Part shown: piece by piece, positions 3,917 to 64,000 of the stretch
Numbering within the stretch: the first letter of the stretch is position 1
Layout of the letters: each line of letters opens with the position of its first letter
Assembly (NCBI GenBank): GCA_002919235.1
Contig: PKEX01000009.1
Location: forward strand, 67,617 to 131,616
Reading direction: 5' to 3'
Length of the DNA stretch: 64,000 nt
From: Clostridia bacterium
GTDB taxonomy: Bacteria; Bacillota; Limnochordia; DTU080; RSA5
Translations under genes and position numbers: made by a program
The notes under the pieces: generated by a model
Seen by the model: the letters and a program-made list of their open reading frames with translations, nothing else
What the model was told of the DNA's origin: nothing
Databases searched by the model: none

Positions 3917-4075
3917 CTCCTCGCCAACCCGGCGTTCTGGCATGCCATAACCTTTAGCCATCCGGCCGGACACGTCCTCCAGCCCGGTCCGCCCGGCCTT
4001 CGGCTTGACACCGCCTCGGCGCCCGTGATAGAGTGCTGATCGACGATGTTCGATCAAGCCGCGGGCGGTGAAACC

Positions 4076-4390: not shown

Positions 4391-4497
4391 GCCCGGCAGG
4401 CCGGCGTTCCCGCCCGTTTCCGCACGCCTTAAGGCAGGGAGAAGCGGCCCCCGGGTGGAATACCCCCGGAGAGCGCCTCATCGTCGCCGGGCCGCGC

Positions 4498-4713
4498 TCA
4501 GTCGTCCTCCCGGTGGCCGTAATGCTTGGTGACGCTTTCCACCGCGTCGCCGTCGATGACGTACGTGGCCTTGGGCCCGCGTAAGGTGAGGAGCCGCCGC
4601 TCCGTGTCAAACTTGGTGTCGCCCAGGTGGAGCTCAAAGGTCTGGCCGCCGGCGGTGTGGATGATGAGCTCGCCCCACTCTTGCAGGAGCTCGTGGACGA
4701 TTTCCATCTTCAC
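4498..4713 (-). CDS. Small hypothetical protein (~70 aa, beta-rich)
   Basis: GGGAG RBS before GTG 4713; codon usage fits the genome. Confidence 0.6.
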   Translation of the reverse strand: MKMEIVHELLQEWGELIIHTAGGQTFELHLGDTKFDTERRLLTLRGPKATYVIDGDAVESVTKHYGHREDD

Positions 4714-4802
4714 GAGAACGCACTCCCTTGCAGTCGGTGTGGCCGCGAAGCGGCCCGGCAAGATGCCAGGTCTAGTTTTTCCATGAGGAAGAGCGGCATA
4801 TC

Positions 4803-5447: not shown

Positions 5448-5474
5448 CACACGACGAAAGGCGGCGACTTTGGT

Positions 5475-6377
5475 TTGAGCCAAGCTCTACCCAGACGATC
5501 GCTGGAAGCTGCTGAGGGGCGCGCCGCTGCGCCTTCTTTTCGCGACTTTGTCGAGATCACCAAGCCCAAGCACCAGTTTGTCCTCTTCACGGGCTTCGTG
5601 ACCATGCGCCTCGCCGCGCCGGAGCTCCCGTGGGACCTGGCTCTCTTTACCCTGCTGGGCACGGCGCTGGCCGTCGCGTCGTCCCACGTCTTCAACCAGA
5701 TCTTTGACCGGGACATCGACGCGCTCATGGAACGGACCAAGAACCGCCCCATGGCCGCGGGCAGGATCCGGGTCCCGCAGGCCGCGGCCTTCGGCAGCGT
5801 CCTCGGCCTCCTCTCCCTCGCGGTGATGGCCTGGAAGACCAACCCGCTGACCGTGCTCTTGACTGTCGCCGGATGGTTTGTCTATGCAGTGGTGTACTCG
5901 TACTGGCTCAAGCGCCGCAGCCCCTGGTGCACCTTGGTGGGCGGCATCTCCGGGGCGATGCCCACGCTCATCGGCTGGGCGGCGGTGAAAGGGAACCTGG
6001 AAGCCGTCCCGCTGCTCTTCTTCGCCTTTATGGCCATCTGGCAGAGCCCGCACTTCTTTGCCCTCTCGCTCTACCGGGCAGATGAATACCGGCGGGCCGG
6101 CATCCCGGTGGTGGTGGTCCGCTACGGCATCCGCTCCACCCTGCGGCGGATGCTGGTGCACGGGCCGCTCCTCATCGGCTGCACGCTGCTGCTTTCCGCC
6201 CAGGGCGTCGGCGGTGCGTTCTTCCTCTACACGACGCTCATCGCAGGGCTCCTCTACTACGCCGGCATCATCCAGGCGAACCGCGAGGGCGAAAAAGCAG
6301 CCGCTGCCTGGGGCAAGCGGCTCTTCCACGCGTCGTACGCCTACATGCTGCTGGTCTTCGCCTGCGCTCTCGTGTGA
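5475..6377 (+). CDS. ctaB: Protoheme IX farnesyltransferase (heme O synthase)
   Basis: ITKP, NQIFDRDIDALMERTKNRP, WLKR, IWQSPHF..L......EY. Confidence 0.92.
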   Translation: MSQALPRRSLEAAEGRAAAPSFRDFVEITKPKHQFVLFTGFVTMRLAAPELPWDLALFTLLGTALAVASSHVFNQIFDRDIDALMERTKNRPMAAGRIRVPQAAAFGSVLGLLSLAVMAWKTNPLTVLLTVAGWFVYAVVYSYWLKRRSPWCTLVGGISGAMPTLIGWAAVKGNLEAVPLLFFAFMAIWQSPHFFALSLYRADEYRRAGIPVVVVRYGIRSTLRRMLVHGPLLIGCTLLLSAQGVGGAFFLYTTLIAGLLYYAGIIQANREGEKAAAAWGKRLFHASYAYMLLVFACALV

Positions 6378-6399
6378 CGGGCGCCGCCCCGGCGCGGCC

Positions 6400-7392
6400 C
6401 TACGAAATCCCGAAGACCCGCACGATCAGGGGCGTGTCGACGGTGACGTGGGGCGCGATGGCGTGATAGGCCCAAAGGTGCACCCACGCGTTGCCCGTCC
6501 TCAGGGTGAGGACGGACTTGATCAGCCCGGGGTACGCAAACTGCAAGAAGACGAAGGCCACGCTGAGGAGCCCGTGAGCCAGCGAATCGTACACGGTCCA
6601 GTACTCCACCAGATGCAGCCCGGCGTAGGTCAGAGCGCCGAGGACCGCCGCTGAAGCCCGTGATCCGGTCACCTTGAGGTACCGGGGAAAGAGCAGGGAG
6701 TAGATGAAGATCATCACCGGCAGGCCGGTGCCGAGCAGGTGAAGGACCAGCGTCAGCGGCACGCCCAGCGCGAGCTGCCTCGCGCTGAGGGAGAAGATCC
6801 CGGGAAACGTGACCAGCTCGCCGATGCTTTCCACCAGCAGGATGACGGCGATGACGAGGAAGTCCTTCTTCGCGTCTTCAGACTTCAAGCCCAGCTCCCG
6901 GTGCCCGTAGCCGCGCCGGCGGAACACCAGGTACGGGATGAGAGCAAAGAACACCCCGTTGTAGATCGCCCACACCACGGCGTCGGCCGGCGCCAGGTGG
7001 TGAGTGGGTCCAAACACCGAACCGTGCAGGTGCAGGCCGATCCCGAACGCGTTCCCCACACCCAGCACCACCGCGCCGTAGACCAGAAGAGCAATCATCT
7101 CGCGCCTTGCCGCCGTGACGCCGGGCGTGCGCGCCTCGAAATCCACGGCCGGCCGTCCCCGGGTCGCCAGGAACGCGAGGCCGATGATGACCAGCGCAAA
7201 GGCAATCTGCATGAGCTGGGTCATGAGGTTGGGGATCAGCTCGTGTGTCCCCACCGCAGGCCGGTCGAACGGCAGGCCGCCGGATCCCAGCACAAGAGCC
7301 ACGCCGAAGGCGAGCACCGTCGCCCCCGCAAACCCGTGCAGGGCACGGAAGGATTCCCCGGACTTCGTCTGAATGGACGGCGATACGTTCAT
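6400..7392 (-). CDS. Multi-pass membrane protein, possibly a degenerate CPBP/Abi family member
   Basis: About 8-9 TM segments; C-terminal YAGLH and RTGNAWVHLWAYH resemble CPBP motifs, but the EExxxR motif is absent. Confidence 0.55.
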   Translation of the reverse strand: MNVSPSIQTKSGESFRALHGFAGATVLAFGVALVLGSGGLPFDRPAVGTHELIPNLMTQLMQIAFALVIIGLAFLATRGRPAVDFEARTPGVTAARREMIALLVYGAVVLGVGNAFGIGLHLHGSVFGPTHHLAPADAVVWAIYNGVFFALIPYLVFRRRGYGHRELGLKSEDAKKDFLVIAVILLVESIGELVTFPGIFSLSARQLALGVPLTLVLHLLGTGLPVMIFIYSLLFPRYLKVTGSRASAAVLGALTYAGLHLVEYWTVYDSLAHGLLSVAFVFLQFAYPGLIKSVLTLRTGNAWVHLWAYHAIAPHVTVDTPLIVRVFGIS

Positions 7393-7501
7393 CTTTCACG
7401 CAGATCCTTTCTTGTGTGCTGATGCTGAAACTTCGGTCTTGCCCCGCTCCACCGGCCGGCGGCGCCTCTCGCACGGGCGTCCGGCACCTCTCGCCTTATC
7501 G

Positions 7502-8161
7502 TTATGCCTCTACCACCGCATAGGCCCTCACCGGAAACGCGCTGCACCCCCGCACCTTCACCGGGACCGCATGAAACCGGAAACCCGAGGCGGGAAGCTG
7601 CTCGAGGCCCCGCAGGTGTTCCACAATGAGGATGCCGGCGGCGAGCAGGATCGAGTGGACGGGCCGCTCCCCGGTAACGGTGTCGTCGATGTTCAGCGAG
7701 TCGATCCCCACCAAGGCGGGACCGGCCGCCTTCAGCCATTCGGCGGCCTCCGCCGTGAGGAAAGGATGGCCGTGGAAGTACGCCTCCGTACCCCAGTGCC
7801 GCGCCCAGCCCGTATGGACCAGCACCGCCTTTCCCCTCACGTCCGCCCCGGCGAACAGCTCCGGGCCGATGGCCCGCCGCGCGGGGTCCGCGCGAAAGAC
7901 GATCCCTTCCAAGTCGGCGACCTGCTCCAGCGGGAGCTCCGCCAGGTCTTTCTCTCCTTCGTAGCGGTGGAAAGGGGCGTCGATGTAGGTGCCCGTGTTG
8001 CCTACCATCTCGATCTTGCCGATGTGGAAGGTGGTTCCCTGGGCATAGCGGTCCTTCGAGGCCTCCCGGCTCAGGTAGTCGGAGATCACCGGGCCAGGAA
8101 GACCCGGATAGGTCACCATGCCGTGCTCCACCGCGTGGCTGAGATCGATCAGCCGGCGCAT
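7502..8161 (-). CDS. Cyclase family (kynurenine formamidase-like) protein
   Basis: IDLSH, GTYIDAPFH, VGIDS, H..LL..GI.IVEHL, PVRAYA. Confidence 0.88.
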   Translation of the reverse strand: MRRLIDLSHAVEHGMVTYPGLPGPVISDYLSREASKDRYAQGTTFHIGKIEMVGNTGTYIDAPFHRYEGEKDLAELPLEQVADLEGIVFRADPARRAIGPELFAGADVRGKAVLVHTGWARHWGTEAYFHGHPFLTAEAAEWLKAAGPALVGIDSLNIDDTVTGERPVHSILLAAGILIVEHLRGLEQLPASGFRFHAVPVKVRGCSAFPVRAYAVVEA

Positions 8162-8280
8162 CCAACGGTCACCTCTGTCAGGCAGTTGCGAGATTTAGCT
8201 CCATTCTTTCCGCGCCGGCACGCGACTTCCTTGTCAGACGGGCCAGCAGGCACTCAAGACCGGGCGCCGCCTGGCTCGAG

Positions 8281-8328
8281 AAAAAAGATCAAGGGGTTTC
8301 GCGTCGCCTTGAGGCGCCGAAACCCCTT
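8281..8328 (-). terminator. Intrinsic terminator after tRNA-Arg
   Basis: AAGGGGTTTCG...CGAAACCCCTT hairpin followed on the minus strand by a T-run. Confidence 0.7.
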
Positions 8329-8332
8329 AACC

Positions 8333-8409
<77 letters not shown>

Positions 8410-8507
8410 ACGGCAAATGGAGCAGAACTTAATATATCAGATCCCCGGCGAAAGTTCAACCACCTGCTTGCCGCCAGTTGCTCCCGGGGCCCCGGCGGGC
8501 GCCGGGA

Positions 8508-9518
8508 TCACCCTGAAACCGGCCGCGGGATGTACACGATGTTCCCCGTCCAGCTCTGGCCCGGTTCCAGCACGATCATCCCCGCGTCGACGCCTCGCGC
8601 CGCGAGGTTGAAGGCGTCGGTCACGCAGGTGTACGGCTCGAGGCAGATCACGTCCCGCGACAGCGGCGCGTAGATCACGAACTCGCGAAAGGCGCTGTCC
8701 GAGCGGACGGCAATCTCCACGCCGGTGCCGGGATCGGCGTAGACCACCTCCGACGGGCCGTGCTGGTTGAGGCCGGTGTAGACGTCGTCGTACTCCTCGT
8801 CCGCCAGCGGCACGTCGCGGGAGAGGTCCCGGGCCGGCGCGGGCTGCCGGATCTCGCCGGTGGGCAGGAGCCGCGCGTCCAGCTCCCAGACCCCCGTCAC
8901 CGGCGCTTTCACCCGGCACTGGCTGCGGCGGCCCTTGGGGGAGAGGGGCAGCGGGAACCACGGGTGCAGGCCGTAGCCCATGGGCATAGGCCCGGAGCCC
9001 GTGTTCTTCGCGGTCATCTCGTTGGCGAGGGCGCCGTCCTTGAGGCGATAAGTAAAGAGCACCTCGAACGGGAAGGGGAACGCGGCTTCCACCTCGGGGT
9101 GGGCGCTGGACGCAAAGCGGAGCGTCACCCACGCGCCCTCTTCGTCGCTGGCGCCCTGGCTCACCACTTCCCAGGGCCGGTTGTAGACCAGGCCGTGGAT
9201 GGCGTTGTTCCGCTCGGGCTCATTGATGGGCAGAGCCGCCTGTTTCCCCCCAAAGGCAAAGCGGCCGTCCCGCACCCGGTTGGGATAGGGAAAGAGAATC
9301 GGGTTGCCGTAGAGGTACGGCCCCTCCCGGAGGGCGTCGTAGTCGGGAGCGCTGACCAGGAGCTCCAGCGGCTGGCCCTGATGCTCCCACACGTACCGGT
9401 TGCAGTTGGCGCCCACCGTCGGCACGATGGTGGCGCTGCTCTTGGTGCCGGCGTCGATGAGCTCGACCACCTGCTCGCCCCTGTCGACCCTCTGCGCCAC
9501 GGAGTACCTGCTGCTCAT
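8508..9518 (-). CDS. Aldose 1-epimerase family protein
   Basis: ILFPYPNRVRDG, NAIHGLV, G.HPWF, ICLEPYT; GGAGG RBS. Confidence 0.9.
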   Translation of the reverse strand: MSSRYSVAQRVDRGEQVVELIDAGTKSSATIVPTVGANCNRYVWEHQGQPLELLVSAPDYDALREGPYLYGNPILFPYPNRVRDGRFAFGGKQAALPINEPERNNAIHGLVYNRPWEVVSQGASDEEGAWVTLRFASSAHPEVEAAFPFPFEVLFTYRLKDGALANEMTAKNTGSGPMPMGYGLHPWFPLPLSPKGRRSQCRVKAPVTGVWELDARLLPTGEIRQPAPARDLSRDVPLADEEYDDVYTGLNQHGPSEVVYADPGTGVEIAVRSDSAFREFVIYAPLSRDVICLEPYTCVTDAFNLAARGVDAGMIVLEPGQSWTGNIVYIPRPVSG

Positions 9519-9693
9519 GCTCGTCCTCCCAAGAGATTGGTGCGCGGGCACGCGCCGGCGGCCGCCGGCGCTCGGCGCCCGGGCGCCTTTGCCCCAGGGA
9601 AAATTGTACCAGACGCGCTCTGCGGGCGAAAGGGCGACGGGCAGATGCCGGATGCGCCCAAAGATCGCCGGGCGAGATCGCCCGGCGGGCCCG

Positions 9694-10236
9694 TTACGGC
9701 CGCCGGAACGTGGCGGGCGTCACCGCCATCGTGACGGTATACACGTCGTGGAGAAAGTCGAACAGCATCTCTTCCACGACGGCAAAACCCAGCTCGCGCA
9801 GGATCTCAAGCCCCTGCTGGTCCGTGCTGGGGATGTCGATCAGCAGCTTTTCGACGCCGTGATGGGAAAAGGCATACTCGGTGATGAGGGCGATGGCTTC
9901 CCGGCGGTAGTCCGGTGTCGTGAGATACCGCAGGTCGCCGACCATAGGGGTGATCCACGCCTCGCCCCGGATCACGTGGATGCTGTGCAGGTCGATATCG
10001 CCGATGTACTCGCCGTCCTTGGTCTCGATGGCCCACTGCTCGCTGAAAGGATCCTCCTGGAGCGCGTAAAACCAGCTCTCCATGTCAAACCTGGTATTTG
10101 TATCGCCCGGAGCGCCGATGTAGAGCAGCTGCACCTCGCGGTCGTTCACCATCTCCAGGCGCCGGTCGAGATCGCTTTCGGCCAGCGGCCTGAGGTTGAC
10201 CCGCGTCCCGGTGATCTTGGCCTGGGCCTTTTCCAT
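9694..10236 (-). CDS. RimJ/RimL-type GNAT N-acetyltransferase-like protein
   Basis: V.LRPL.ESD, WAIETKDGEYIG.I.L, YAF, LGF; acetyl-CoA loop degenerate. Confidence 0.7.
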   Translation of the reverse strand: MEKAQAKITGTRVNLRPLAESDLDRRLEMVNDREVQLLYIGAPGDTNTRFDMESWFYALQEDPFSEQWAIETKDGEYIGDIDLHSIHVIRGEAWITPMVGDLRYLTTPDYRREAIALITEYAFSHHGVEKLLIDIPSTDQQGLEILRELGFAVVEEMLFDFLHDVYTVTMAVTPATFRRP

Positions 10237-10636: not shown

Positions 10637-10740
10637 GCTCCGGCCGCCCGCCGTTGGCGGCCGGACCCCGCGCGAACCGCCGCAAGACGCGAAGAGGGCC
10701 CTGGGCGGCACCGGCCGCCAGGGCCCTCACGTTCGTGTCG

Positions 10741-10833
10741 TGGCGGAAGGGGAGGGATTCGAACCCTCGGTAGGACTTTTGGTCCTACTACGGTTTAGCA
10801 AACCGCCCGGATCGGCCACTCTCGCACCCTTCC
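10741..10833 (-). tRNA. tRNA-Ser(GCT)
   Basis: Reverse complement GGAAGGG...GCGGT-TTGCTAA-ACCGT, long variable arm, GGTTCGAATCC, CCCTTCC-GCCA. Confidence 0.92.
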
Positions 10834-11064
10834 GCGCCGATACGCCGCGAGCAGGGAACCCTCCCTGCTCGAAGAGCGCCTTTATTCTAGCACAAACCGC
10901 TCCCGGGCGTCAACGGATGCGGGAAACACCAGGAACGGCCAGCCAGCGCGTCAAAGTAGCTCTCGCATGCCTGCCGCGTCGCTGGAGCACCCTAGCCTCG
11001 GGGATGGCATCGATTCGCGGCATTCCTGGAACGCCTTGGGATGCCGGTCGCAGGCGGTGAGAGT

Positions 11065-11406
11065 ATGGGCGGTGAACCCATCGGCGGCTCGATCGACTGG
11101 CCCGTCATCGGCCAGCAGGTGGGCCTTGGGATGCTCTTGGGCTTTGCCGTAGGCTACCTGGCCAAAAAGGCGTTGAAGGTCGCGCTGGTCGTCGCGGGCA
11201 TTCTGTTCCTGATCCTCGTCGGGCTGCAGCACTACGATTTTATCGCAATCAACTGGACCCGGATCGAAGAGACGTATTCCCAGGCCCTCAATCCCCCGGG
11301 CGGGCTCGACGCGGTGATCCGCGGGTGGGTCGACTCCCTCGCGGCCGTCATCCCCGGCGCCGGGGGCTTCGCCGTCGGCTTCTTCTGGGGCATGCGCAAA
11401 GGCTGA
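11065..11406 (+). CDS. FUN14 family membrane protein
   Basis: Q.G.G.LLGFAVGY.AKKALK.....G..F..L..LQ....I.INW and C-terminal GGFA.GF..G. Confidence 0.8.
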   Translation: MGGEPIGGSIDWPVIGQQVGLGMLLGFAVGYLAKKALKVALVVAGILFLILVGLQHYDFIAINWTRIEETYSQALNPPGGLDAVIRGWVDSLAAVIPGAGGFAVGFFWGMRKG

Positions 11407-53118: not shown

Positions 53119-54984
53119 ATGCGCCTGAGACGCACGGGGTTGCCGCAGGTGTTGTCGCTTCTCTTGAGCCTTTTGGCTTTGGTCGTCGCCGGGGCGGCCG
53201 CGCCGGCCGCTGCGCAACCGGAGGCGCAGGATCAGGCCGCCGCCGGCTCCGGGCCTTACCGGAACACCCGGGGCATTCCTTCGCTGAAAGAGATCTACGC
53301 CGACAAGTTTCTGATCGGCTTTGCCACGGGCCTCTACTACTCGGAAGTGGAGGACCTGATGGCTCACCTCTACAACGCCCTCACGCCTGAAAACGAGATG
53401 AAGTGGCAGTCCGTCCAGCCCGCTCCGGGGCGGTTCAATTTCAACGCCGCGGACCAGCTGGCCCGCTTCGCCGAGCAGAACGGCATGAAGCTCATCGGCC
53501 ACACGCTGGTGTGGCACAGCCAGACGCCCCTCTGGGTGTGGCAGCGGCCCGACGGCACTCGCCGCACGCGCGAGGAGCTGCTCCAGATCATGGAGGAGCA
53601 CATCCGCAGCGTGGCCGGGCGCTACGCCGGCCGCATTTACCAGTGGGACGTGGTGAACGAGGCGGTCGAGCAGTACGGCGGCGTCTGGCAGCTGCGCCGT
53701 TCGCCGTGGCTGGAGATCATAGGCGAAGACTACATCGAGCACGCGTTCCGCATCGCCCACGAAGTCGATCCCCGGGCGATGCTCCTCTACAACGACTACA
53801 GCAGCACCGATCCGGGAAAGCGCGACCGCATCTACCAGCTTCTCAAGGACCTGCTGGACAAGGGCGTACCGGTCCACGGCGTCGGCATGCAGGGCCACTG
53901 GAACCTTTACTACCCGTCGGCCGAACAGATCCGCCAGGCCATCGAGAAGTACGCCTCCTTGGGCCTGCGGGTGAACATCACCGAGCTCGACATCAGCGTC
54001 TACGAATGGTCGGACCGGAGCAACCGCTACCCCACCGGCCTGCCCGAGAGCATGCTCGAGCGGCAGGCGGAGCGGTACGCCGAGATCTTCCGGGTTTTCC
54101 TGGAGTACCACCACGTCATCGACCGGGTGTCGTTCTGGGGGACCACCGACCGCCGCAGCTGGCTCAACAACTACCCGCAGCCCAACCGGCCCGACCACCC
54201 GCTTCTGATCGACAGGTACGGCCAGCTGAAGCCGGCCTTCTGGGCCATCGTCGATCCGTACCGCCCGTGGTACGTCAACAAGGCAGAGTACCTGGGTGCC
54301 GCGGTGTTTGAGACGGCGGACGGAACCGAGGTGGGAACCCTTATCCCCGGCAGGTACCAGCTGGAGGAGCTGGCGGCCAAAGGGTTCGACCTCGCCCGCG
54401 TTGAGCGGCTCGCGATCGAGCGCGGCCACATGGTCACCTTCTATGAAACTGCCGACTTCGACGGCGAATCGTGGGCGTACACGGGAACGACAGCCATCGA
54501 CGGGGCCGGCCTGGCGCAAAAGGTCCGCTCGATGGTGATCGAGTACACCGGAGCCGCGAACGTCGCCGCCCAGCGGCCCGTGACGGCCAGCGCCGATGAG
54601 GCGCGGGCCGTCCGGGCCGTGGACGGCGACCCCAACACCAGCTGGTCTTCGAACCGCGGCGCGCCCTATTGGCTCGCCGTCGACCTGGGAGACGAGTACA
54701 CCCTCACCGGCTGGGCAGTGAGACTGGCCGGGAGCAGCTCGCTGCTGGGCGGTCCCTCCGAAGGCCCTCTCAACGCCGCCGACTTTGAACTGCAAGTGAG
54801 CCGCGACGGGGTGAACTGGACCACCGTCGACCGGGTGGAAGGCAACACGCAGAGTATCGTCGAGCGAGAGATCCAGCCGGCCACCGGCCGGCACGTCCGG
54901 CTGTACGTGAGCAAACCCACGTCGCTGGAGTTCAACAAGAATCTCGTGGTGTACGAGTTCGAGGTCTACGGGTTTACGCGGTGA
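53119..54984 (+). CDS. Secreted GH10 endo-1,4-beta-xylanase with a beta/gamma-crystallin-like domain and C-terminal CBM32 (F5/8 type C)
   Basis: Signal peptide; TPENEMKW, GHTLVWHSQ.P, WDVVNEA, YNDY, GMQGH, ITELD; AVDGD..T.W, WL.VDLG, S.DG.NWT, RHVRL, EFEVYG. Confidence 0.92.
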   Translation: MRLRRTGLPQVLSLLLSLLALVVAGAAAPAAAQPEAQDQAAAGSGPYRNTRGIPSLKEIYADKFLIGFATGLYYSEVEDLMAHLYNALTPENEMKWQSVQPAPGRFNFNAADQLARFAEQNGMKLIGHTLVWHSQTPLWVWQRPDGTRRTREELLQIMEEHIRSVAGRYAGRIYQWDVVNEAVEQYGGVWQLRRSPWLEIIGEDYIEHAFRIAHEVDPRAMLLYNDYSSTDPGKRDRIYQLLKDLLDKGVPVHGVGMQGHWNLYYPSAEQIRQAIEKYASLGLRVNITELDISVYEWSDRSNRYPTGLPESMLERQAERYAEIFRVFLEYHHVIDRVSFWGTTDRRSWLNNYPQPNRPDHPLLIDRYGQLKPAFWAIVDPYRPWYVNKAEYLGAAVFETADGTEVGTLIPGRYQLEELAAKGFDLARVERLAIERGHMVTFYETADFDGESWAYTGTTAIDGAGLAQKVRSMVIEYTGAANVAAQRPVTASADEARAVRAVDGDPNTSWSSNRGAPYWLAVDLGDEYTLTGWAVRLAGSSSLLGGPSEGPLNAADFELQVSRDGVNWTTVDRVEGNTQSIVEREIQPATGRHVRLYVSKPTSLEFNKNLVVYEFEVYGFTR

Positions 54985-55121: not shown

Positions 55122-55541
55122 CTAGTTGAGCGCGATCCTCCACCGTCTCTCCGCGTCCGCCTTGGGCAGCGTGATCACCAGCTCACCCTTGTTGAATTCA
55201 GCGGTCACCCGGTCGTGGGCGATCTCGCCGGGGAGCTGGATGCGGCGCTCGAACCGGGTCACGCTGCTGGCCCGCTCCCGGCGCAGGAACCGCCTGCCTT
55301 CGTTCTGCACCCTCTCGCCCTTGATGATGAGGACGTTGTTGCGAAGCTCGATCTCGATGTCCTTCTTGTCAAAGCCCGGAAGCTCCGCCGTGACGATGTA
55401 CGCCTCGTCGGTCTCTTCGACGTCCACCGGCGGGGTGAGGGCGAAGGGAGCAAAAGCGAACGCCGGGAACTGGAACGCCCGGTTGAAGAACTCATCCATC
55501 TCCGTCCAGATATCCATGGGCCTGGGAACGAGAAATCTCAT
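55122..55541 (-). CDS. Hsp20/alpha-crystallin small heat shock protein
   Basis: PVDV.ET...Y.V.AELPG..K.DI, L.I.GER, RRER, F.R...LP, A.F..G.L.ITLPK. Confidence 0.92.
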   Translation of the reverse strand: MRFLVPRPMDIWTEMDEFFNRAFQFPAFAFAPFALTPPVDVEETDEAYIVTAELPGFDKKDIEIELRNNVLIIKGERVQNEGRRFLRRERASSVTRFERRIQLPGEIAHDRVTAEFNKGELVITLPKADAERRWRIALN

Positions 55542-55568
55542 GGCTTCGGGACCTCCCTCTCGCGGATC

Positions 55569-55624
55569 TGACCTTTCCTGACCTTTCGCCTTCATCTTAC
55601 CACCATTGGTCAAGATTGGTCAAG
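55569..55624 (-). promoter_or_regulatory. CtsR-type heptad repeats overlapping the hsp20 promoter
   Basis: GGTCAAGattGGTCAAG (plus) and AGGTCAggaaAGGTCA (minus), each with 10-nt period; minus strand TTGACC-18-TAAGAT with extended TG. Confidence 0.75.
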
Positions 55625-56196: not shown

Positions 56197-56997
56197 TCAC
56201 GAGGTGAGCGGCAGCCAGCTTCGATCCGCGCTGCGGAAGGCTTCCAGGAGCAGGCGGTTCGCCCGCTGGTTGATTCGCGCGGCGGCCCGGTGCGCCGGGC
56301 TGTACCTTTCGACCGGCGACACCGGGTATTCACCGCAGATGTCCGCCCCGCGCAGCGTGCGCCGGCTGGCGATGAACCGGATCAGCTCCGTCACGACGTC
56401 CAGCTTCATCGAGCCCTGTTCCCAGTCGGTGACGGCATCCGCGGGGTCGAGGACGTCCTTGTCGACGCTTATATAGACATCCCGAGTGGTAAGGCGGGAC
56501 ATGACGGCAGGAAGGATGATCTTCGCATTCTCGCCGGTGACCGGTCCAAAGATGGAGACTTTCCGTCTCAGCTCCGGGCCGAAAGCGGGCGGGATCGCCT
56601 TGGCCGCGTCGCTCCGGGCGCCGACAATCACCACCTGTTTGAGCATGGGTAGTTCCGCCAGCGCCTTCAGCACCCACGACCCGCAGGTGATGAGGCTCTC
56701 GTCCGGGCTTTCGATCATGTCGGTGTGGTAGTCGAAAAGCACGAGGGAAAAGGGCGTCTCGATCTCCGCCAGGAGGAGGTAGGTGACGTAATGGTAGCTC
56801 CCGCTCCCGATCAACGTGACGCCCCGCCGCCGGCGCCGGCCGAGCCTCCGCCGGATGACAGCCAGGGTCTCGAGGGAGCAGTACCGCTTGGTGCCGGGAA
56901 GATCCGAGAGGTCGATCCACTCGACGGCCTGCTCATTGAGGAAAGACTGCCATTGGTAGCTGTGGTCAAAGTCAAGAACGGTAACGCCCTCGTACAT
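56197..56997 (-). CDS. Arginase/ureohydrolase-fold family protein
   Basis: GSGSYHY, LVLFDYHTD, CGSWV, VYISVDKDVL, TDWEQG, GADICGE. Confidence 0.82.
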   Translation of the reverse strand: MYEGVTVLDFDHSYQWQSFLNEQAVEWIDLSDLPGTKRYCSLETLAVIRRRLGRRRRRGVTLIGSGSYHYVTYLLLAEIETPFSLVLFDYHTDMIESPDESLITCGSWVLKALAELPMLKQVVIVGARSDAAKAIPPAFGPELRRKVSIFGPVTGENAKIILPAVMSRLTTRDVYISVDKDVLDPADAVTDWEQGSMKLDVVTELIRFIASRRTLRGADICGEYPVSPVERYSPAHRAAARINQRANRLLLEAFRSADRSWLPLTS

Positions 56998-57418
56998 CTG
57001 TACCGCGCTCCCTTCCCTCGCCCCAGATGCCTATGGCCGCTACCGGTGATTTGACTTTGCACCCAATGGCTCGACCGCTGTCACATCGCCGCTTCACGTC
57101 TACGGGACCGATACTGCGGCGAAACCATTTCTCTCGTTGAGTCGTCCTGCGCCGAACTTGAGAAACGGCTCTTCAATCAATCTCTTCAATCAATATAGTA
57201 GGGCGGCGGCTTCCTTCTTGCCAACGGCGGCCTGGCAGCGCCTTTGGTGAGACCCGCCGCGCAGGGGACAAGATGAAGACTCTACAAAGGTGAATTCCGT
57301 GCCGGTGCGGAAATTCTCACGAATGTAAGCCTCCTGCTGCAGACCGATTGACATTTCCGCCGTCGAGGCGTTCAAATTTTACGAGGCACCAGCGATCACC
57401 CTTCGAGGACGATGCCAG

Positions 57419-58252
57419 ATGACCGGAGCGCGGGAAGATTTCCCGGGGGCCTTTAAGGCTTCCGCGCTGATCACCTTGGAAGACGTGACGTATCTCTACC
57501 CCGGTGCGGACACGCCGGCTCTCTCCGGCGTCTCGCTCACCGTTTCGCCTGGAGAACGCCTGGCCATCATCGGGGCGTCCGGCTCGGGCAAGTCCACCCT
57601 GGCCAAGCTGATGGCGGGCCTTCTCCAGCCCACTTCCGGCCGGGTGGTGCGAGAGCACGGCGATGCGGCCATCGTCTTTCAAAACCCCGAAACGCAGCTC
57701 ATCGCCGCCACCGTCGAAGAGGACGTCGCCATCGGGCCCGAAAACTTGGGACTTCCCAGCGACGAGATCCGCCGGCGGGTGGAGAACGCCCTGGCGACGC
57801 TGGGCATTTCCCATCTGGCCAAGCGCCCGGTCTCGGCGCTTTCCGGGGGCGAAAAGCAGCGGGTGGCCGTGGCCGGCGCCCTGGCAATGGAGCCCAAATG
57901 CTTGATCCTGGACGAAGCCACGGCCATGCTCCACCCGCAGGCCAAGCGACAGCTGGAGGAAGCGCTCTTGCGGATCTCCGCCCGCTCCGTGGCGATCGTC
58001 CAGATCACCCATGACATGGACGAAGCCGCCCGGGCCGACCGCGTCGCCCTGGTTCACCGGGGCAGGCTGGCGGCGTGCGGCCCGCCGGATGAAATTCTAA
58101 GCGAAGCAGAACTGATCTCCGCCGCCGGCCTGGAGCCGCCGGCCGCGGTCCAGCTGGCCCTGGCGCTCAGGCGGCGCGGCCTGCCGCTTCCGGACGTGCC
58201 GCTGGACGTGCGTTCCCTGGCTGACGCCGTCCTCAAGGCGGTGGTGCCATGA
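57419..58252 (+). CDS. ecfA: ECF transporter ATPase EcfA
   Basis: GASGSGKST, VFQNPETQ....TVEEDVA.GPENLG, LSGGEKQRVA.AG.LAM.P, LDEATAML, ITHDM. Confidence 0.9.
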   Translation: MTGAREDFPGAFKASALITLEDVTYLYPGADTPALSGVSLTVSPGERLAIIGASGSGKSTLAKLMAGLLQPTSGRVVREHGDAAIVFQNPETQLIAATVEEDVAIGPENLGLPSDEIRRRVENALATLGISHLAKRPVSALSGGEKQRVAVAGALAMEPKCLILDEATAMLHPQAKRQLEEALLRISARSVAIVQITHDMDEAARADRVALVHRGRLAACGPPDEILSEAELISAAGLEPPAAVQLALALRRRGLPLPDVPLDVRSLADAVLKAVVP

Positions 58253-60150
58253 GCATCGAAGCCCGGGACGTCGCGTTTTCCTACGACGGGGAACGGCCGG
58301 TTCTTCGCTCCGTCTCCTTCTCCGTCGGTCCGGGAGAGCTCTGCGCTCTGGTGGGCCCCAGCGGTAGCGGCAAGAGCACGCTGCTCCTGCTCCTCGCGGG
58401 CCTCGACCGCCCCGAACGGGGAGCCATCCGCGTGTTCGGCGCCGATCCCGCCCGGCGAGACCCGCGGACCCAGGCGCCCGGCGCGGGCCAGCCGGGGCAC
58501 GGCCCGGTGCGTGCCGAGATCGCGCTGGTCTTGCAGCAGCCGGAGCGGCAGTTTTTCAACCAGACGGTGGAGGCCGAGATCGCCTTTTCCCTCAAGCGGA
58601 TGGGCCTATCCCCTCAGGAGATCGACGAGCGGGTAGCCCGGGCCCTGCACGACGTAGGCCTGCCGCCCGACGTTTACCTCAAGCGCTCGCCGTTCCACCT
58701 GTCCGGAGGCGAGCAGCGAGCGGTGGCCATCGCCGTCGCCCTGGCCCTGTCGCCCCGGGCGCTGCTCCTCGACGAACCCACGGCCGGCCTGGACCCGGCC
58801 ACCGCCCGCCGCATCCTGGACCAGCTCGATGCCTGGCGCCGGGCGCACCACGCCCCGGTGATCCTCGTCACCCACGACATGGCCTTTGCCGGGGCGAGAG
58901 CCGACCGCCTCCTGGCGCTGTCGCAAGGAGAAGCCGTCTTCTTCGGCCGGCCCGCGGCGTTCTTTCGCGAGAAGGCGCTGGTCGAACGGCTCGGGCTGGA
59001 CGAGCCCGCGCCCTCGGCCTTTCTCCGGCATCTCTGCGAGCAAGGCCTGGAAGTGCCTTACCCGCTCTTTGACGTGGAGGAAGCCGCTGCGGCGGTCGCA
59101 GGGGCTGTTGCCCGAGCCACCGGCACCGCCGGAAGCCTAGGGAACGCACGGAGCGTAGGGAACGCAGAGGGTCCTCGGAGTGCAGGGATTTCGGGGATCA
59201 CGGCGCCCGCTCGCTGCGCCGGGAGCGCCGGGGAAACCGGAAACAGCGGGAGCGCCGGCCGCATCGGAAGCACCGAGGGCACTGAGAGTACTGGGAACGG
59301 CGGCGACAGCGGGAACACCGGAAGCGCCGGCCACAGCCACCGCCGCCGGCAAAAAAACCGGACCGCCGGGAGCGGCCCCCACAGGGGCTATCTCGACGTT
59401 CCTGGTCCACTGCACCCTCTCGACCCGCGGGCGAAGACCCTCGGAACCCTTTTCCTGCTCGCCGGCGTCTTTGCCCTCGAATCCTGGTGGGGATACGCCG
59501 CGATTTCCGCCCTGCTCCTCCTCGCGGCGGCGTACGGCAAAATCCCCCTGGCCCGGCTCACCGCCGCGGTGCGGGGTATCAGCTTCCTGCTCTTCTTTAC
59601 GGTGGTCGTCAACGGGCTCTTCTCGCCCGGGGAGCCCCTCGCGCAGCTGGGCCCGCTCACGCTGACGGACAGGGGGCTCGTCCGGGGAACCGTCCTCGGC
59701 ATGCGGCTGGTCCTCATCGTCGGAGCGACGACGCTGCTGACGGCGGTAACGAAGCCGCTGGATCTGGCGTATGCCCTCGGCTGGATCCTCGGGCCCTTTC
59801 GCCTCGTGCGGGTCCCGGTGTCCGAACTGGCCATGGTGACCAGCATCGCCTTGCGCTTTATCCCTGTGCTCTCCGCGGAAGCCCAGCGGATCCAACTGGC
59901 GCAGAAGGCCCGGGGAATCGGCATCGAAGACCGTCCCTTGAAGCGGGCGCTGTCGCTGGCCCCCATCATCGTCCCCCTTTTCGCCGGGGCTCTGCGGCAG
60001 GCGGACGAACTCGGCCTCGCCCTCGAAGCCAGGGGGTACGTGCCGGGAAGGCCCCGCACCCGGCTCCATCCCTTGCAGTTCCGCACGGCGGACGCCGCCT
60101 TCCTCGCGGCCTGCGCCGCCCTGGCCCTGGTCGCCTGGCTCTGGCTCTGA
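58249..60150 (+). CDS. Fused ECF ATPase EcfA' - transmembrane EcfT
   Basis: N-half GPSGSGKST, QQPE.QFF..TV..EIAF, SPF.LSGG; low-complexity linker; C-half LH.LDPR.K, IALRFIP, AQKARG, ALEARGY; single open frame. Confidence 0.85.
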   Translation: MSIEARDVAFSYDGERPVLRSVSFSVGPGELCALVGPSGSGKSTLLLLLAGLDRPERGAIRVFGADPARRDPRTQAPGAGQPGHGPVRAEIALVLQQPERQFFNQTVEAEIAFSLKRMGLSPQEIDERVARALHDVGLPPDVYLKRSPFHLSGGEQRAVAIAVALALSPRALLLDEPTAGLDPATARRILDQLDAWRRAHHAPVILVTHDMAFAGARADRLLALSQGEAVFFGRPAAFFREKALVERLGLDEPAPSAFLRHLCEQGLEVPYPLFDVEEAAAAVAGAVARATGTAGSLGNARSVGNAEGPRSAGISGITAPARCAGSAGETGNSGSAGRIGSTEGTESTGNGGDSGNTGSAGHSHRRRQKNRTAGSGPHRGYLDVPGPLHPLDPRAKTLGTLFLLAGVFALESWWGYAAISALLLLAAAYGKIPLARLTAAVRGISFLLFFTVVVNGLFSPGEPLAQLGPLTLTDRGLVRGTVLGMRLVLIVGATTLLTAVTKPLDLAYALGWILGPFRLVRVPVSELAMVTSIALRFIPVLSAEAQRIQLAQKARGIGIEDRPLKRALSLAPIIVPLFAGALRQADELGLALEARGYVPGRPRTRLHPLQFRTADAAFLAACAALALVAWLWL

Positions 60151-60180
60151 GCCCGGCCCATGGCCGTGGACCGCGCGAGG

Positions 60181-60200
60181 TGACGGCGGCGCCGCCGTCA
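60181..60200. terminator. Perfect 20-bp palindrome / hairpin after the ecf genes
   Basis: TGACGGCGGC-GCCGCCGTCA. Confidence 0.5.
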
Positions 60201-60249
60201 GGAGCGCTGCCGCTGCTTCATGCTTCTCGCGGGCTCGACGCCCGGGTGC

Positions 60250-60595
60250 TGCCCGTTCTTGGGCGGAGACGAGGCTCTTGTCGCCCATTTGTGAGCATGG
60301 AGATCCTCCCGGCCGCCCACCGGCGGGGAGCTTGATGACTTGTGAGCACTTTCACAATGCGGCCCGGTTCTGGGTACCTCGTTTAGCTGGGACATAGACG
60401 AAACGACAGCGGCCCTGCCGGGCGCGTCCGGCCCCTCGCGACCGCCCTTGCCCGGTTCTGGGCAGCCGAGACCACTCTCTTGCCCATTTTTGGGCAAGAA
60501 GAACGCTGAAGCCGCCCATATGCGAGCCGATTGATGACTCGTGGGCACTTTCACAATACGAACCTGAGCCGCTCACTCCGTTTCGCTGGACAAAC
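60250..60595. repeat. Degenerate direct repeat with 199-bp offset containing phased palindromes
   Basis: Blocks TGCCCG, GCCCATTT, GCCGCCCA, TTGATGACT.GTG.GCACTTTCACAAT and GTTT.GCTGG all recur exactly 199 bp apart. Confidence 0.8.
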
Positions 60596-60720
60596 AGGGG
60601 GACGGAAAGGCCGCGATTCCAGAGACCGCAGTTCGCTGCAGTTCCGTAAAGCCTGCGACTTGCTGCCGCTCAAATAGGACTCCAGCCTAGCGGAATCCGA
60701 TAAACAACACACACTGCAGC

Positions 60721-61770
60721 TCAATAGAGCAGGGCGTCGTATTCGGGTTCGGCTGTATCCGAAGGGCTTTGGCCCACGATGGTGATGAGCACTTGGAAGG
60801 GGACACAGGCGATGGCTTCCCGGGGGTGGCCGATCCAGCCGGTGCCGACGCAGACCTGGTTGCGGCAGGTGGATTCGGCGACGCGCACTCTGCCGTCCCG
60901 GTATTCGATGACCATCCGCTCACTGCCGAGGACGAGCTCGTGGCGGCCTTCGCCCTCCAGCGGCAGGACGGCGTACACCTCGCCGTTGACCGTGACTTTG
61001 GCTTGGGGATGAGCCACTGCGGCGGGCTGCCAGAGCGTTGAAAGGGCGAGGCCGGCCCCAATGGCCACCAGCACCGTCCCGGTGAGCCAGGCTGCCTTCA
61101 GCTCAAAGAGCCGCCGGCCGGCGGCTTCGGCCCCGGCTCGACCTGTCCCCGCCGCCAGCGACACGAAGGGCAGAAGCCTCTTCGCCGCCACGCCCACCAG
61201 AGCGCCGCTGGGCACGGCGAACCACAGGAGATAAGGGAGATAGTAGAACACCTGCGCCTGTCCCAGCATGGCCCACGCGGCCAGGAGCTGCCCCACGTTG
61301 TGGGCGGTCGCGCCCATCAGGCTGACGGCCACCGGTCCCAGGGCGCCGGCCAGGCGAAGCACCAGCGCCATCACGGCGACACTCACCACGCCGCCCGTCA
61401 GCCCGAAGACAAATGCCGGCGCAAAGAGGGTGCCCGTCACCAGGGAACCAACCAGCTGCCGCATGACGACGATCAACAGCGCTTCGCGAAAGCCCCAAGC
61501 GTAGAGGGCGAACATGGAAACCAGGTTGGCCAGCCCGATCTTGGCACCGGGGATCGGCAGAGCGGGAAGCTGCGCTTCGAAGATGTGGAGCGCGGTCGCC
61601 AGCGCCAAGAACACGCCCAGCCGGGCGACGTCCCGGGCGCTCCAGCCCGCGGCGGCGCCTCCGGCCTTTGCGGCCGGTGCGGGCGCCCCCCGACCGCGCC
61701 CGAACCCGGCCACCGGCAGCGAGCCTGCGCCCGCACTTGCGGAAGCGGCGGCAGACCCCCGTGCCCACAT
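60721..61770 (-). CDS. Gx transporter (Hpre_diP_synt_I, ECF S-component-like) fused to a C-terminal NusG domain II (DUF1312-like)
   Basis: E..LP...PGAKIGLAN, S..GA..HN.GQL, YYLP.L; an extra TM; then VRV.ES.C.NQ.CV..GWI......I.C.P. Confidence 0.82.
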   Translation of the reverse strand: MWARGSAAASASAGAGSLPVAGFGRGRGAPAPAAKAGGAAAGWSARDVARLGVFLALATALHIFEAQLPALPIPGAKIGLANLVSMFALYAWGFREALLIVVMRQLVGSLVTGTLFAPAFVFGLTGGVVSVAVMALVLRLAGALGPVAVSLMGATAHNVGQLLAAWAMLGQAQVFYYLPYLLWFAVPSGALVGVAAKRLLPFVSLAAGTGRAGAEAAGRRLFELKAAWLTGTVLVAIGAGLALSTLWQPAAVAHPQAKVTVNGEVYAVLPLEGEGRHELVLGSERMVIEYRDGRVRVAESTCRNQVCVGTGWIGHPREAIACVPFQVLITIVGQSPSDTAEPEYDALLY

Positions 61771-61771
61771 A

Positions 61772-63016
61772 TCACTGGCCCTCCAAGAGGTCGACTTTAC
61801 CCTCGAGCCCGCTGGTGATCAACACGTTCAGATCCTTGTCGACGAGGATCCCCTCCACGCCCGGGAGCGACTCCAGGAGGGCGAGGCCTTCTTCTTTCCC
61901 CAGGACAAAGACGGCCGTCGACAAAGCGTCCGCCCACACGCCGTGGGGAGCCACCACCGTGACGCTCGCGAGCTCCATCGCCGGCCAGCCGGTGCGGGGG
62001 TCGACGATGTGCGAATAGCGGACTCCTTCGTATTCGAAGTAGCGCTCGTAATCGCCGGAGGTGGCCACTGCCGCGTCGCTCACGTGCAGGATGCCCAGGA
62101 TCTGCCCGGCGCGTCGAGGATGCCGGATCCCCAGCCTCCAGGGCGTGCCGTCGGGCCGGGTGCCCAGGGCGTAGACGTCTCCGCCCAAGTCCACCAGGGC
62201 CCGCACGACCCCGTGTTCCTTAAGGAGCTGCACGGCCCGGTCCGCGCCGTATCCCTTCGCGATGGCGCCCAGGTCGATGGCCTGTCCCGGCCGGGCCAGC
62301 CGGGCCCGGCTGTTTTCGGCGTCGATCTCAAGGCCGCGGAAATCCACCCGCGCCAGCGCGGCCGCGAGCTCCCCGGGATCCGGGGGAGCGTAGCCGATGA
62401 GGCGCGTCGGCGACGTGCCGGAGCGGGCCGGCCCTTGGCCGCTCTCACCGCCGGCGGCACTCTCCGCCGCGTCACCGGACCCTGTGCCGGACAGCACGCC
62501 CGGCGGCTCGCCGGCCGGAACGCCGTGTGGGCGAGCCTCATCTCCGTGACCGTGGTGCTCGTGGGCCTCCTCCTCCGGATACGTCCCTTCCTCGACGAAC
62601 CCCCACAGGTCCACCACGGGCGCCACGGTGGGGTCAAAGGCGCCGCCCGAAAGCTCCGCCAGGCGGACGGCCTCCTCCAGCAGCGCCAGCACTTCGGCGG
62701 AGACGGTCACCCACTCCCCGCCCGACCCGTTCAGCGCGGCCACGTCCCCGAAGGGGCGAAAGCGGTCGAGAAGCACGGTGAGCCGGTCCAGCTCCTGCAT
62801 GACCGCAGCCACGGCCGCGCCGGCAGCGGGCCCCTCGGCGACGACTCGCGCCACCGTGCCCATGGTAAAGCCGATGCTCTCCTCGCGCTGCAGGGGGGCC
62901 ACCGCTTCCCCCGGCGCCTTGCGAAGGCCGAGCCCCCACGCGCCGGCCAGCAGGACCGCCGCGGCCAGCAGCCCCAGCGCCGCCTTTTTCCCCGTGCTCA
63001 TTCGCCCCGTGCTCAT
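61772..63016 (-). CDS. apbE: FAD:protein FMN transferase (ApbE)
   Basis: TMGT, SGGAFDPTV.P..DLWGF, IDLGAIAKGY..D, LGGD, W..GI.HP, ATSGDYER, HI.DPRTG.P, ADALST. Confidence 0.93.
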   Translation of the reverse strand: MSTGRMSTGKKAALGLLAAAVLLAGAWGLGLRKAPGEAVAPLQREESIGFTMGTVARVVAEGPAAGAAVAAVMQELDRLTVLLDRFRPFGDVAALNGSGGEWVTVSAEVLALLEEAVRLAELSGGAFDPTVAPVVDLWGFVEEGTYPEEEAHEHHGHGDEARPHGVPAGEPPGVLSGTGSGDAAESAAGGESGQGPARSGTSPTRLIGYAPPDPGELAAALARVDFRGLEIDAENSRARLARPGQAIDLGAIAKGYGADRAVQLLKEHGVVRALVDLGGDVYALGTRPDGTPWRLGIRHPRRAGQILGILHVSDAAVATSGDYERYFEYEGVRYSHIVDPRTGWPAMELASVTVVAPHGVWADALSTAVFVLGKEEGLALLESLPGVEGILVDKDLNVLITSGLEGKVDLLEGQ

Positions 63017-63085
63017 CCGCTTCGCCTCCCCGGGCGCCCGCCTCAGGCGGCGCCCGCCTCTTCCGGCAAGCCTCTTCGCCCGCCC

Positions 63086-63922
63086 TCACACCGCGGTGAG
63101 GACGCCGGCGTCCTCCAGGATGATCTGCATGGCATCGGTCGGGCACTTCTCCACGCAGATGCCGCACGCCGTGCACCGGTTGGGATCGACGCAGGCCAGG
63201 TGCCCCAGCATCTCCACGGCGTTCTCGGGGCAGACCCGCACGCAGATGCCGCAGCCGATGCAGCCCACTTCGCAGACGGAGCGGACCTGCTTGCCCGGCG
63301 CCGTCGAGACGCAGCGGACGAACACCTCCTGGGAAGCGTCCATCACCGCGATCACCCCGCGGGGGCAGGCCGCCTCACACAGGCCGCACCCGGTGCACAG
63401 CGCCTCGTTGACCACCGGCAGCCCCGTCGGGCTCATGGTGATCGCCCCGTAGGGGCACACCCGGGAGCACGTGCCCAGGCCCAGGCAGCCGAAGACGCAG
63501 CCCTTCCCGCCTTTGCCCACCAGGTCTGCCGCCCGGCAGTCCAGGACCCCTTCGTAGTCGGCCCGCCACTGCGAGATAGCCCGGTGCCCGCCGCAGCGGA
63601 CCCTGGCCACCCGCCGCTCGCGGTGCACCGTCTCCGTCAGCCCCAGCGCCTCGGCGAGCTTTTGGATCTGCGACTCCGACGCGACGGGGCAGCTCTGCGG
63701 CACGGCCTCGCCTTTGGCCAACGCCTGCGCCAGGGCCGCGCAGCCCGCCATGCCGCAGGCACCGCAGTTGTTCCCCGGCAGCAGGTTGGTGAGCAGCTCG
63801 ATCTGCTCGTCCTCAGCCGACGCAGTCCTCTTCGCCAGGGCGACGAGGGCGATGGCGAAGAACGCGCCCACCGCTCCCATGGTCGCCGTCGCCGTCACGA
63901 TCGTGCTCACCGTCGCACCCAT
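63086..63922 (-). CDS. rnfB: Rnf electron transport complex subunit B (polyferredoxin type)
   Basis: N-terminal TM, LPG.NCGACG..GC, C.FGCLGLG.C...C, several CxxCxxCxxxCP clusters. Confidence 0.9.
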   Translation of the reverse strand: MGATVSTIVTATATMGAVGAFFAIALVALAKRTASAEDEQIELLTNLLPGNNCGACGMAGCAALAQALAKGEAVPQSCPVASESQIQKLAEALGLTETVHRERRVARVRCGGHRAISQWRADYEGVLDCRAADLVGKGGKGCVFGCLGLGTCSRVCPYGAITMSPTGLPVVNEALCTGCGLCEAACPRGVIAVMDASQEVFVRCVSTAPGKQVRSVCEVGCIGCGICVRVCPENAVEMLGHLACVDPNRCTACGICVEKCPTDAMQIILEDAGVLTAV

Positions 63923-63983
63923 CGCCGATCATCCCTTTCTCCGTATCTCCCCGAAACCATCCGCCCGCTTGGCCGCTGGCCGC

Positions 63984-64000
63984 TCACGACCCCAGCCCGG
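63984..64000 (-). CDS. Probable 3' end of the upstream rnf gene (rnfA expected)
   Basis: ...GLGS* fragment at the window edge; call rests on rnf gene order only. Confidence 0.3.

Follow-up and report, generated by a model that had tools for sequence, protein, structure and literature searches.

How is the extracytoplasmic flavin transferase ApbE supplied with flavin adenine dinucleotide (FAD)? This was formerly an open point in the biogenesis of the Rnf and Nqr complexes, and the answer given since, export by an energy-coupling factor (ECF) complex, has so far been tested only in Listeria (PMC9973259). The question is raised again by a locus of a Clostridia bacterium (assembly GCA_002919235.1; Limnochordia, DTU080, RSA5; genome G000, 99.45% complete), in which two ECF genes converge on the end of an rnf operon. 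The locus occupies positions 57419 to 63922 of the window, by which we mean the whole 64,000-nucleotide stretch analysed (contig PKEX01000009.1, positions 67,617 to 131,616, forward strand). A preliminary description, made from the letters alone, had read it as a dedicated FAD exporter serving Rnf. Our analysis, which bears directly on the genes present, their folds and the integrity of their motifs, and on synteny, paralogy and distribution among genomes, makes it probable that the locus encodes an FAD exporter of the ECF type, whose S subunit is the PF07456 ('Gx') protein and which supplies ApbE for the flavinylation of Rnf. The exporter part of the earlier proposal is supported by the S-component fold, the linkage and the co-occurrence with Rnf and Gx, whereas its novelty and the word 'dedicated' are not.

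The region has a G+C content of 63-73% and spurious long open reading frames (ORFs) are plentiful, yet five named genes are distinct by their family matches. ORF calls, Pfam and NCBIfam, the last two being the hidden Markov model check that had been suggested, bore out the positions and families first assigned to them. On the plus strand ecfA is followed by an ecfA'::ecfT fusion, and both converge on rnfB, apbE and a PF07456::NusG_II fusion on the minus strand:

57419..58252, plus strand: ecfA, ECF-type ATPase, 277 aa (ABC_tran, 111 bits)
58249..60150, plus strand: ecfA'::ecfT fusion, 633 aa (ABC_tran at residues 19-179, 99 bits; CbiQ/EcfT at residues 387-603, 121 bits)
58249..59118, plus strand: EcfA' ATPase domain, residues 1-290 of the 633-aa fusion (motifs intact)
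59119..59373, plus strand: A'-T linker, ~85 aa, G/S/A/T-rich (predicted local distance difference test score, pLDDT, ~30 over residues 295-385)
59374..60150, plus strand: EcfT domain (CbiQ); coupling motifs Ala-Arg-Gly, two copies, at residues 554 and 594 (Pfam, motif check)
60151..60720, no strand: convergent intergenic spacer, 570 bp (two ~115-bp direct-repeat copies)
60721..61770, minus strand: PF07456::NusG_II fusion, 349 aa (Hpre_diP_synt_I/PF07456 at residues 55-199, 137 bits; NusG_II/PF07009 at residues 236-334, 70.5 bits)
61150..61638, minus strand: EetB-like (PF07456, 'Gx') six-helix S-component fold, residues 45-207 (Pfam, AlphaFold 2, Foldseek)
61030..61125, minus strand: seventh helix, residues 216-247 of Gx::NusG_II (AlphaFold 2 model)
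60775..61005, minus strand: EetA-like NusG_II/DUF1312 beta domain, residues 256-332 (Pfam, Foldseek, profile match)
61772..63016, minus strand: apbE, FAD:protein flavin mononucleotide (FMN) transferase, 414 aa (ApbE, 293 bits)
63086..63922, minus strand: rnfB, last gene of rnfCDGEAB, 278 aa (FeS PF04060 and Fer4 domains; TIGR01944, 104 bits, above the 68.7 cut-off)

The ecfA stop and the ecfA'::ecfT start share a 4-nt overlap, the gap from apbE to the Gx start is 1 nt, and the ECF module lies 0.6 kb from its candidate S gene. The remaining rnf genes (rnfA, rnfE, rnfG, rnfD and rnfC), together with a gene for a 254-aa protein with two FMN_bind domains, continue past the window end on the same minus strand.

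The comparison on which our reading turns is the flavin exporter of Listeria. The model of Listeria EetB (PF07456) resembles an S-component, and FAD is recovered in pull-downs of the protein (Rivera-Lugo et al. 2023, mBio, PMC9973259), and EetB, the ECF-T paralogue FmnA and the ATPases EcfA/EcfA' are each required for flavinylation of PplA by the ApbE homologue FmnB (PMC9973259). According to the same source, eetB colocalises with ECF-T genes in 291 genomes, with ECF-A/A' in 796, with eetA in 3,328 and with apbE in 2,169, and it stands beside Rnf genes in 572 Clostridia genomes. EetA and EetB form single chains in 14 genomes, EetB+T and EetB+A fusions are known, and such subunit fusion is read by the authors as a sign that the parts form a single complex; in the supplement NusG_II (PF07009) carries the name EetA, and Limnochordia, which belong to a phylum covered by that survey, have rows of their own (PMC9973259). 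Our literature search found no later paper that alters this picture.

Does the protein beside apbE have the features of an S subunit? An AlphaFold (AF2) model of Gx::NusG_II, built on 33 homologues (pLDDT 80; predicted template modelling score, pTM, 0.69), has six helices (residues 45-207) joined through a variable linker of positive charge to a seventh (residues 216-247), with a small beta domain behind it. Foldseek comparison of the helical part with the Protein Data Bank returned TmRibU (5kbw_A; template modelling score, TMt, 0.71), FolT (4huq_S, 0.74) and RibU (3p5n_A, 0.66), so that in the model the Gx half has the ECF S-component fold. This bears on the Pfam name of PF07456, for which the match of 137 bits stands far over the cut-off of 30 bits. 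That name and the source label of one homologue, 'heptaprenyl diphosphate synthase', are all that would suggest component I of heptaprenyl diphosphate synthase and a part in quinone synthesis. We give this idea practically no weight, as the modelled membrane protein arranges its six helices in an S-component fold, the neighbours are apbE, rnf and ecf rather than prenyl synthase genes, and the family has been experimentally reassigned (PMC9973259).

An S-component fold could also belong to an importing subunit that salvages flavin or another cofactor, with a different source of FAD for ApbE. Every ECF S-component characterised by structure is an importer, and the best structural match here, TmRibU, is a riboflavin importer subunit. 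Against this stands the behaviour of the family: Listeria EetB cannot substitute for RibU in flavin uptake and is needed for export-dependent flavinylation, and the colocalisation with apbE extends over the 2,169 genomes mentioned above (PMC9973259). Moreover, G000 contains RibH and offers no other flavin-linked reason for so tight a coupling of apbE and Gx (the 1-nt gap). RibH, one marker, suggests that riboflavin synthesis is encoded in this genome, in which no RibU was detected; flavin import is therefore not the obvious task of the protein. We consider import very unlikely and export of FAD by an ECF complex the better account of the Gx protein.

The second half of the chain resembles EetA. 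In Foldseek searches of the Protein Data Bank the beta domain matched DUF1312 structures (4esn_A, TMt 0.86; 4obi; Lin0431, 3ld7), and a profile comparison likewise matched 4esn_A (E 1.4e-15). ECF S-components have both termini in the cytoplasm, so helix 7 should carry the NusG_II domain to the outer side of the membrane. The protein has only three cysteines (C302, C307 and C322), all within the NusG_II domain and all invariant in the 33 homologues. As in EetA, a NusG_II domain stands behind a membrane helix and is encoded with eetB, here by fusion behind helix 7, and 34 of 38 database clusters matched at E <= 1e-10 contain both PF07456 and NusG_II. The Gx gene of a relative, G009 (L012 ~10640-11123; G009:C5:75658-76093), is split in two overlapping frames, probably through a frameshift or assembly error.

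The putative client enzyme and its targets lie in the same operon. ApbE has a hydrophobic N-terminal anchor (residues 13-31) and no lipobox, because its N-terminal region has no cysteine; it is probably membrane-anchored with the catalytic domain outside. Flavinylation-type TGAT motifs occur at residue 168 of RnfG and residue 193 of RnfD, and the 254-aa protein at the head of the rnf operon combines a membrane anchor with two FMN_bind domains. Thus apbE, RnfG, RnfD and a two-domain FMN_bind protein share an operon with Gx, the colocalisation expected of an exporter, and all four FMN_bind domains of the genome and its sole ApbE fall within this locus. Rnf clusters with multi-flavinylated RnfG have been described before (Méheust et al. 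2021, PMC8238504). The 254-aa protein may offer Rnf an extra outward electron path.

Several further features of these proteins were observed. The RnfG of this locus (L007:8874-9944, minus strand, 356 aa) has two FMN_bind domains and a Gly/Ala-rich linker; the TGAT belongs to domain 1, and domain 2 has TMAT at the equivalent place and may not be flavinylated. The 254-aa protein (L007:12375-13139, minus strand, which is G000:C4:136374-137138) carries the motif variants VTQAT and ITGST and resembles Listeria PplA in layout; tblastn matches to it lie upstream of rnfC in G003, G005 and G027 (loci L073, L074 and L077) and in L075 and L078. An insert of ~70 residues in ApbE (~135-205), rich in His, Gly, Ser and Glu (HEHHGHGD...), divides the Pfam match in two stretches, and the linkers of A'-T and of RnfG, like the N-terminus of Gx, contain similar low-complexity inserts.

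Judged by generally known motif patterns for ATPases and EcfT, the Walker A, signature, Walker B and H-loop motifs are kept in both ATPases (in EcfA at residues 52, 141, 162 and 196, in that order, with LSGGE as the signature), and T retains two Ala-Arg-Gly coupling motifs. Among solved structures, the EcfT profile finds EcfT chains of group II (4huq_T with 260 bits; 5d3m_D). The best NCBIfam match of EcfA is TIGR04520 ECF_ATPase_1 (270 bits, under the 315 cut-off) and that of the EcfA' domain is TIGR04521 ECF_ATPase_2 (231 bits, cut-off 330).

The joining of A' to T needed separate scrutiny. The two parts are in one frame with a linker of ~255 nt; the linker is lacking in G003, the nearest relative with the locus, where A' (290 aa) and T (277 aa) have a gene each, with a 4-nt overlap. 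The 633-aa length occurs in 8 of the 15 listed members of the fusion's 90%-identity cluster, one of them on 109 contigs, and because this form recurs in many assemblies we regard the A'::T fusion as real. A frameshift or assembly slip at the A7 run near 59351 was considered and is ruled out by the shared frame, the long linker and the recurring 633-aa form. In the AlphaFold model of the fusion both domains are confident and the linker is disordered; block-mean pLDDT in A' is mostly 88-97, low at residues 71-90 and from ~251, and with a pTM of 0.49 the model is mute on the placement of A' relative to T.

Is the fusion itself a sign of an exporter? Modules linked to rnf take the form A + A'::T here, A::A' (two ABC_tran stretches in 465-493 aa) + T in G004, G009 and G011, and unfused genes in G003. 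The further modules that these and other relatives keep in the rplQ-truA ribosomal slot (see below) appear either as A::A'::T (719-785 aa) or, in G010, as A (238 aa) + A'::T (519 aa); single-ORF examples are L028:3911-6070, L029:3875-6184, L033:3896-6253 and L036:2549-4735, the A::A'::T order being confirmed by Pfam for L028 and L029. The A'::T fusion as a hallmark of exporter modules is therefore ruled out, as slot modules are fused too and other linked modules are A::A' + T or unfused. Within the length range of 348-1108 aa, the only cluster found to join an A' to a closely related T was the fusion's own. Since fusion patterns vary among relatives and only this cluster joins A' to this T, the particular fusion is a species-level trait, and the fusions are not what is new.

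Which S-components could the module serve? G000 has one CbiQ, one PF07456 and one ApbE gene genome-wide, and self-built profiles (one based on 47 EcfT domains, the other on the Gx portion of the alignment) found one ORF each among 19,882 six-frame ORFs. PF07155, QueT, ThiT and CbiM gave no matches in the genome; PF12822 matched only BioY, weakly and not over the cut-off, on another contig adjoining a birA-like gene. BioY and Gx are the only S-type proteins found, so that the earlier remark that no other S-component gene lies nearby holds genome-wide, bar this one BioY. The usual housekeeping module is missing: rplQ is followed directly by truA, ~100-140 bp on (G000:C1:193380-195614, L072), whereas the slot between them holds an ECF module in 15 of 15 other class genomes examined. 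The linked module is thus this genome's only ECF module, and because the rplQ-truA module is missing it probably also energises BioY, unless BioY works alone.

These facts lend some credit to a general reading of ecfA-ecfA'::T, in which the genes would form an importer module for BioY and for S-components that escaped detection, would lie beside rnf by inherited order, and would have in Gx an independent or incidental user. In addition to being the only ECF module in a genome with a BioY gene, the ecf genes are convergent with rnf rather than in one operon with it, and Listeria FmnA can replace EcfT in import (PMC9973259). However, the locus does not look like a housekeeping group-II module: it lies on another contig than the rpoA-rplQ-[ecfAA'T]-truA slot, beside rnf, and only BioY and Gx were found where several scattered S-components would be expected.

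Comparison with relatives speaks further on this point. We sampled 12 genomes of the order and compared them with 29 other genomes of the class Limnochordia. Gx, RnfD and the linked type of EcfT co-occur in the same 7 of the 12 (G000, G003, G004, G005, G008, G009 and G011), and none of the three is found in the other 5. The arrangement seen here, rnfCDGEAB-apbE-Gx(::)NusG_II convergent on ecfA-ecfA'-ecfT, recurs in G003, G004, G009 and G011, and G005 has the same layout with a 5-kb metal-transporter insert (CDF, P-type ATPase, ZIP). In G008 the Gx contig is only 1,428 bp long, and one EcfT of that genome falls inside the linked clade. Linkage is thus kept in 5 of 5 other same-order genomes with a sufficiently long Gx contig, a point that the preliminary description had proposed to check, and the adjacency is retained at 27-63% EcfT identity across three families. 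Every relative with a linked module also has a further ECF module, and in the nine examined the order is rpsD-rpoA-rplQ-[ecf]-truA, often with one A::A'::T chain. A separate housekeeping ecfAA'T, about which that description had asked, is therefore present in relatives and absent here, where the slot is empty. It had also named what would undo its proposal, a sole housekeeping module that is unlinked to rnf-apbE in relatives: the module is indeed the sole one here, but it is not unlinked.

For the general importer module these patterns are awkward. BioY occurs in 12 of 12 genomes of the order, including the 5 without a linked module, and is therefore independent of it there; no linked module was found outside the genomes that have Gx and Rnf; relatives keep a separate slot module able to serve BioY; and the adjacency has outlasted the divergence in EcfT given above. 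PF12822 S-components over the cut-off are found in 1 of the 12 order genomes versus 26 of the 29 other class genomes. Taken together, we judge the general module unlikely, and the linked module is most readily understood as a paralogue that is peculiar to this lineage and works with EetB::EetA.

Where did this paralogue come from? In an ATPase tree (IQ-TREE, 44 rows) the linked and slot copies of the order fall into a single clade that excludes the slot copies of other orders (95/96 for A and 97/95 for A'). Because it unites both kinds of copy from this order, the tree points to a linked ecfAA'T that arose by duplication within the lineage. The slot T of the order form their own clade (99/97) in an EcfT tree of 45 rows, from which two long rows were omitted, and for the linked-type T a single clade of their own was not rejected (approximately unbiased, AU, test, p 0.50).

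Several observations weigh against the exporter reading or limit it. The same EcfT tree puts the linked-type T (8 rows) sister to 13 canonical T of other orders (96/92), which also suits a housekeeping origin as a general module; we read the conflict with the ATPase tree as a possible sign of faster change of the slot T. Both ATPases score under the NCBIfam ECF equivalog cut-offs, and the ecf genes, being convergent, are not co-transcribed with rnf-apbE-eetBA. In G005, 5 kb of unrelated genes separate ecf from the rnf operon. The co-occurrence could reflect gain or loss of one contiguous block among kin that are not independent, and is weaker evidence than independent events would be. Loci with rnf-apbE-Gx::NusG_II and no ecf neighbour were found in three other members of the class (G019, G027 and G039) and, from a wider scan, in L075 and L078, and because of these five a linked ecf module is not required. 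As the sole ECF module, it cannot be claimed to be 'dedicated', the earlier word, and it may serve BioY as well. In Listeria, delta-eetA has no phenotype (PMC9973259). Finally, FAD as substrate, the direction of export and the T-S contact are carried over by analogy from Listeria, outside this organism and class.

Other arrangements were found around Gx. In G030 (L014) and in L076 only ecfT lies beside Gx::NusG_II, as with Listeria fmnA, and the examined G030 locus has no ECF ATPase. L079, a contig of a metagenome-assembled genome labelled Deltaproteobacteria, carries ecfA-ecfT-rnfCDGEAB-apbE-eetA-eetB on one strand (1461-10084), with one ATPase gene detected. Overall, Rnf genes stand beside Gx in 12 of 29 loci, and EcfT lies within the examined flanks in 4 of 29.

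How much of this is new? The locus belongs to the published EetB/EetA-ECF system, and the hypothesis is in substance the published model; the architecture that was first thought undescribed has nearly every element in PMC9973259. Like the Listeria set of EetB-FmnA-EcfA-EcfA', FmnB and EetA, it combines an S-like PF07456 protein, a PF07009 partner, a paralogous ECF-T, two ECF ATPases and an adjacent ApbE, with flavinylated FMN_bind targets that include a PplA-like two-domain protein (PMC9973259). The differences are that in Listeria only T is dedicated and the ATPases are borrowed from the housekeeping set, whereas here A, A' and T are all lineage-duplicated; that here EetB-EetA form one chain, A'-T form one chain, and the housekeeping module is lost; and that the client here is Rnf, in contrast to the Ndh2/demethylmenaquinone (DMK) chain of extracellular electron transfer in Listeria (PMC9973259). 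Clostridia and other Bacillota have rnf-apbE-eetA-eetB cassettes with the same genes before or after rnfCDGEAB (PMC9973259); most have separate genes in the order eetA-eetB, whereas one EetB::EetA chain is encoded here. Closest in being self-contained are eetB clusters with their own ECF-T, A and A' beside apbE (Fig. 2B-C and Data Set S1 of PMC9973259), among them a Paenibacillus example, CbiQ - ABC_tran - ABC_tran::EetB - EetA - ApbE. The fusions named in that paper are EetB+T, EetB+A and EetA+EetB; A'::T is not mentioned in the portions of its text and supplement considered here. Canonical group-II ecfA-ecfA'-ecfT modules (4HUQ, 4RFS, 5D3M) share with the locus the EcfT profile match, two intact ATPases and both Ala-Arg-Gly motifs; unlike them, the module here is outside the rplQ-truA slot and without PF12822-type S-components over the cut-off. 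New here are three things: a paralogy that spans the entire module, a housekeeping module that has been lost, and a compact locus that unites the flavinylation genes.

Based on these comparisons, we propose a probable sequence of events in which the locus acts as a complete flavin-trafficking and flavinylation unit. First, the cell would make its own flavin, as RibH, the only marker searched, suggests. A three-polypeptide ECF complex of EcfA, EcfA'::EcfT and EetB with its tethered EetA would then move FAD from the cytoplasm to the outer side of the membrane, where membrane-anchored ApbE would use it to put FMN on threonines of RnfG, RnfD and the PplA-like FMN_bind protein. We further speculate, more tentatively and as something we hold possible rather than probable, that the whole set of A, A' and T was duplicated in the order and one copy became dedicated to the EetB::EetA exporter for Rnf, that the housekeeping copy was then deleted here, and that A, A'::T and S::EetA now put ECF transport mainly or only to cofactor export, the tethered EetA with its three invariant cysteines acting at the outer face, between EetB and ApbE, as an obligatory domain for hand-off or gating.

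The surroundings of the five genes hold little else. An Rfam scan of 56900-64000 found no RNA family at E <= 0.1 in the spacer or upstream of ecfA, and with this empty scan a riboswitch or other RNA at either place was dismissed; the promoter and terminator scan gave nothing exceeding shuffled expectation. The repeats in the convergent spacer (60151-60720) are 72% identical and 199 bp apart, and short similar pieces occur on contig C8; the equivalent convergent gap in G003 is only ~20 bp. The upstream neighbours are unrelated: a GH10 xylanase with an F5/8 type C domain (53119-54984, plus strand), an Hsp20 (55122-55613, minus strand) and an arginase/agmatinase-family protein (56197-56997, minus strand).

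The locus brings no new principle to the supply of FAD outside the membrane. It is a compact natural case, in which a single ApbE, a single exporter and a single ECF module share ~13 kb with every FMN_bind target, and the lineage lets exporter-linked and housekeeping modules be compared as recent paralogues. Such a comparison could help to find what determines export versus import in ECF complexes and what role the EetA domain plays.

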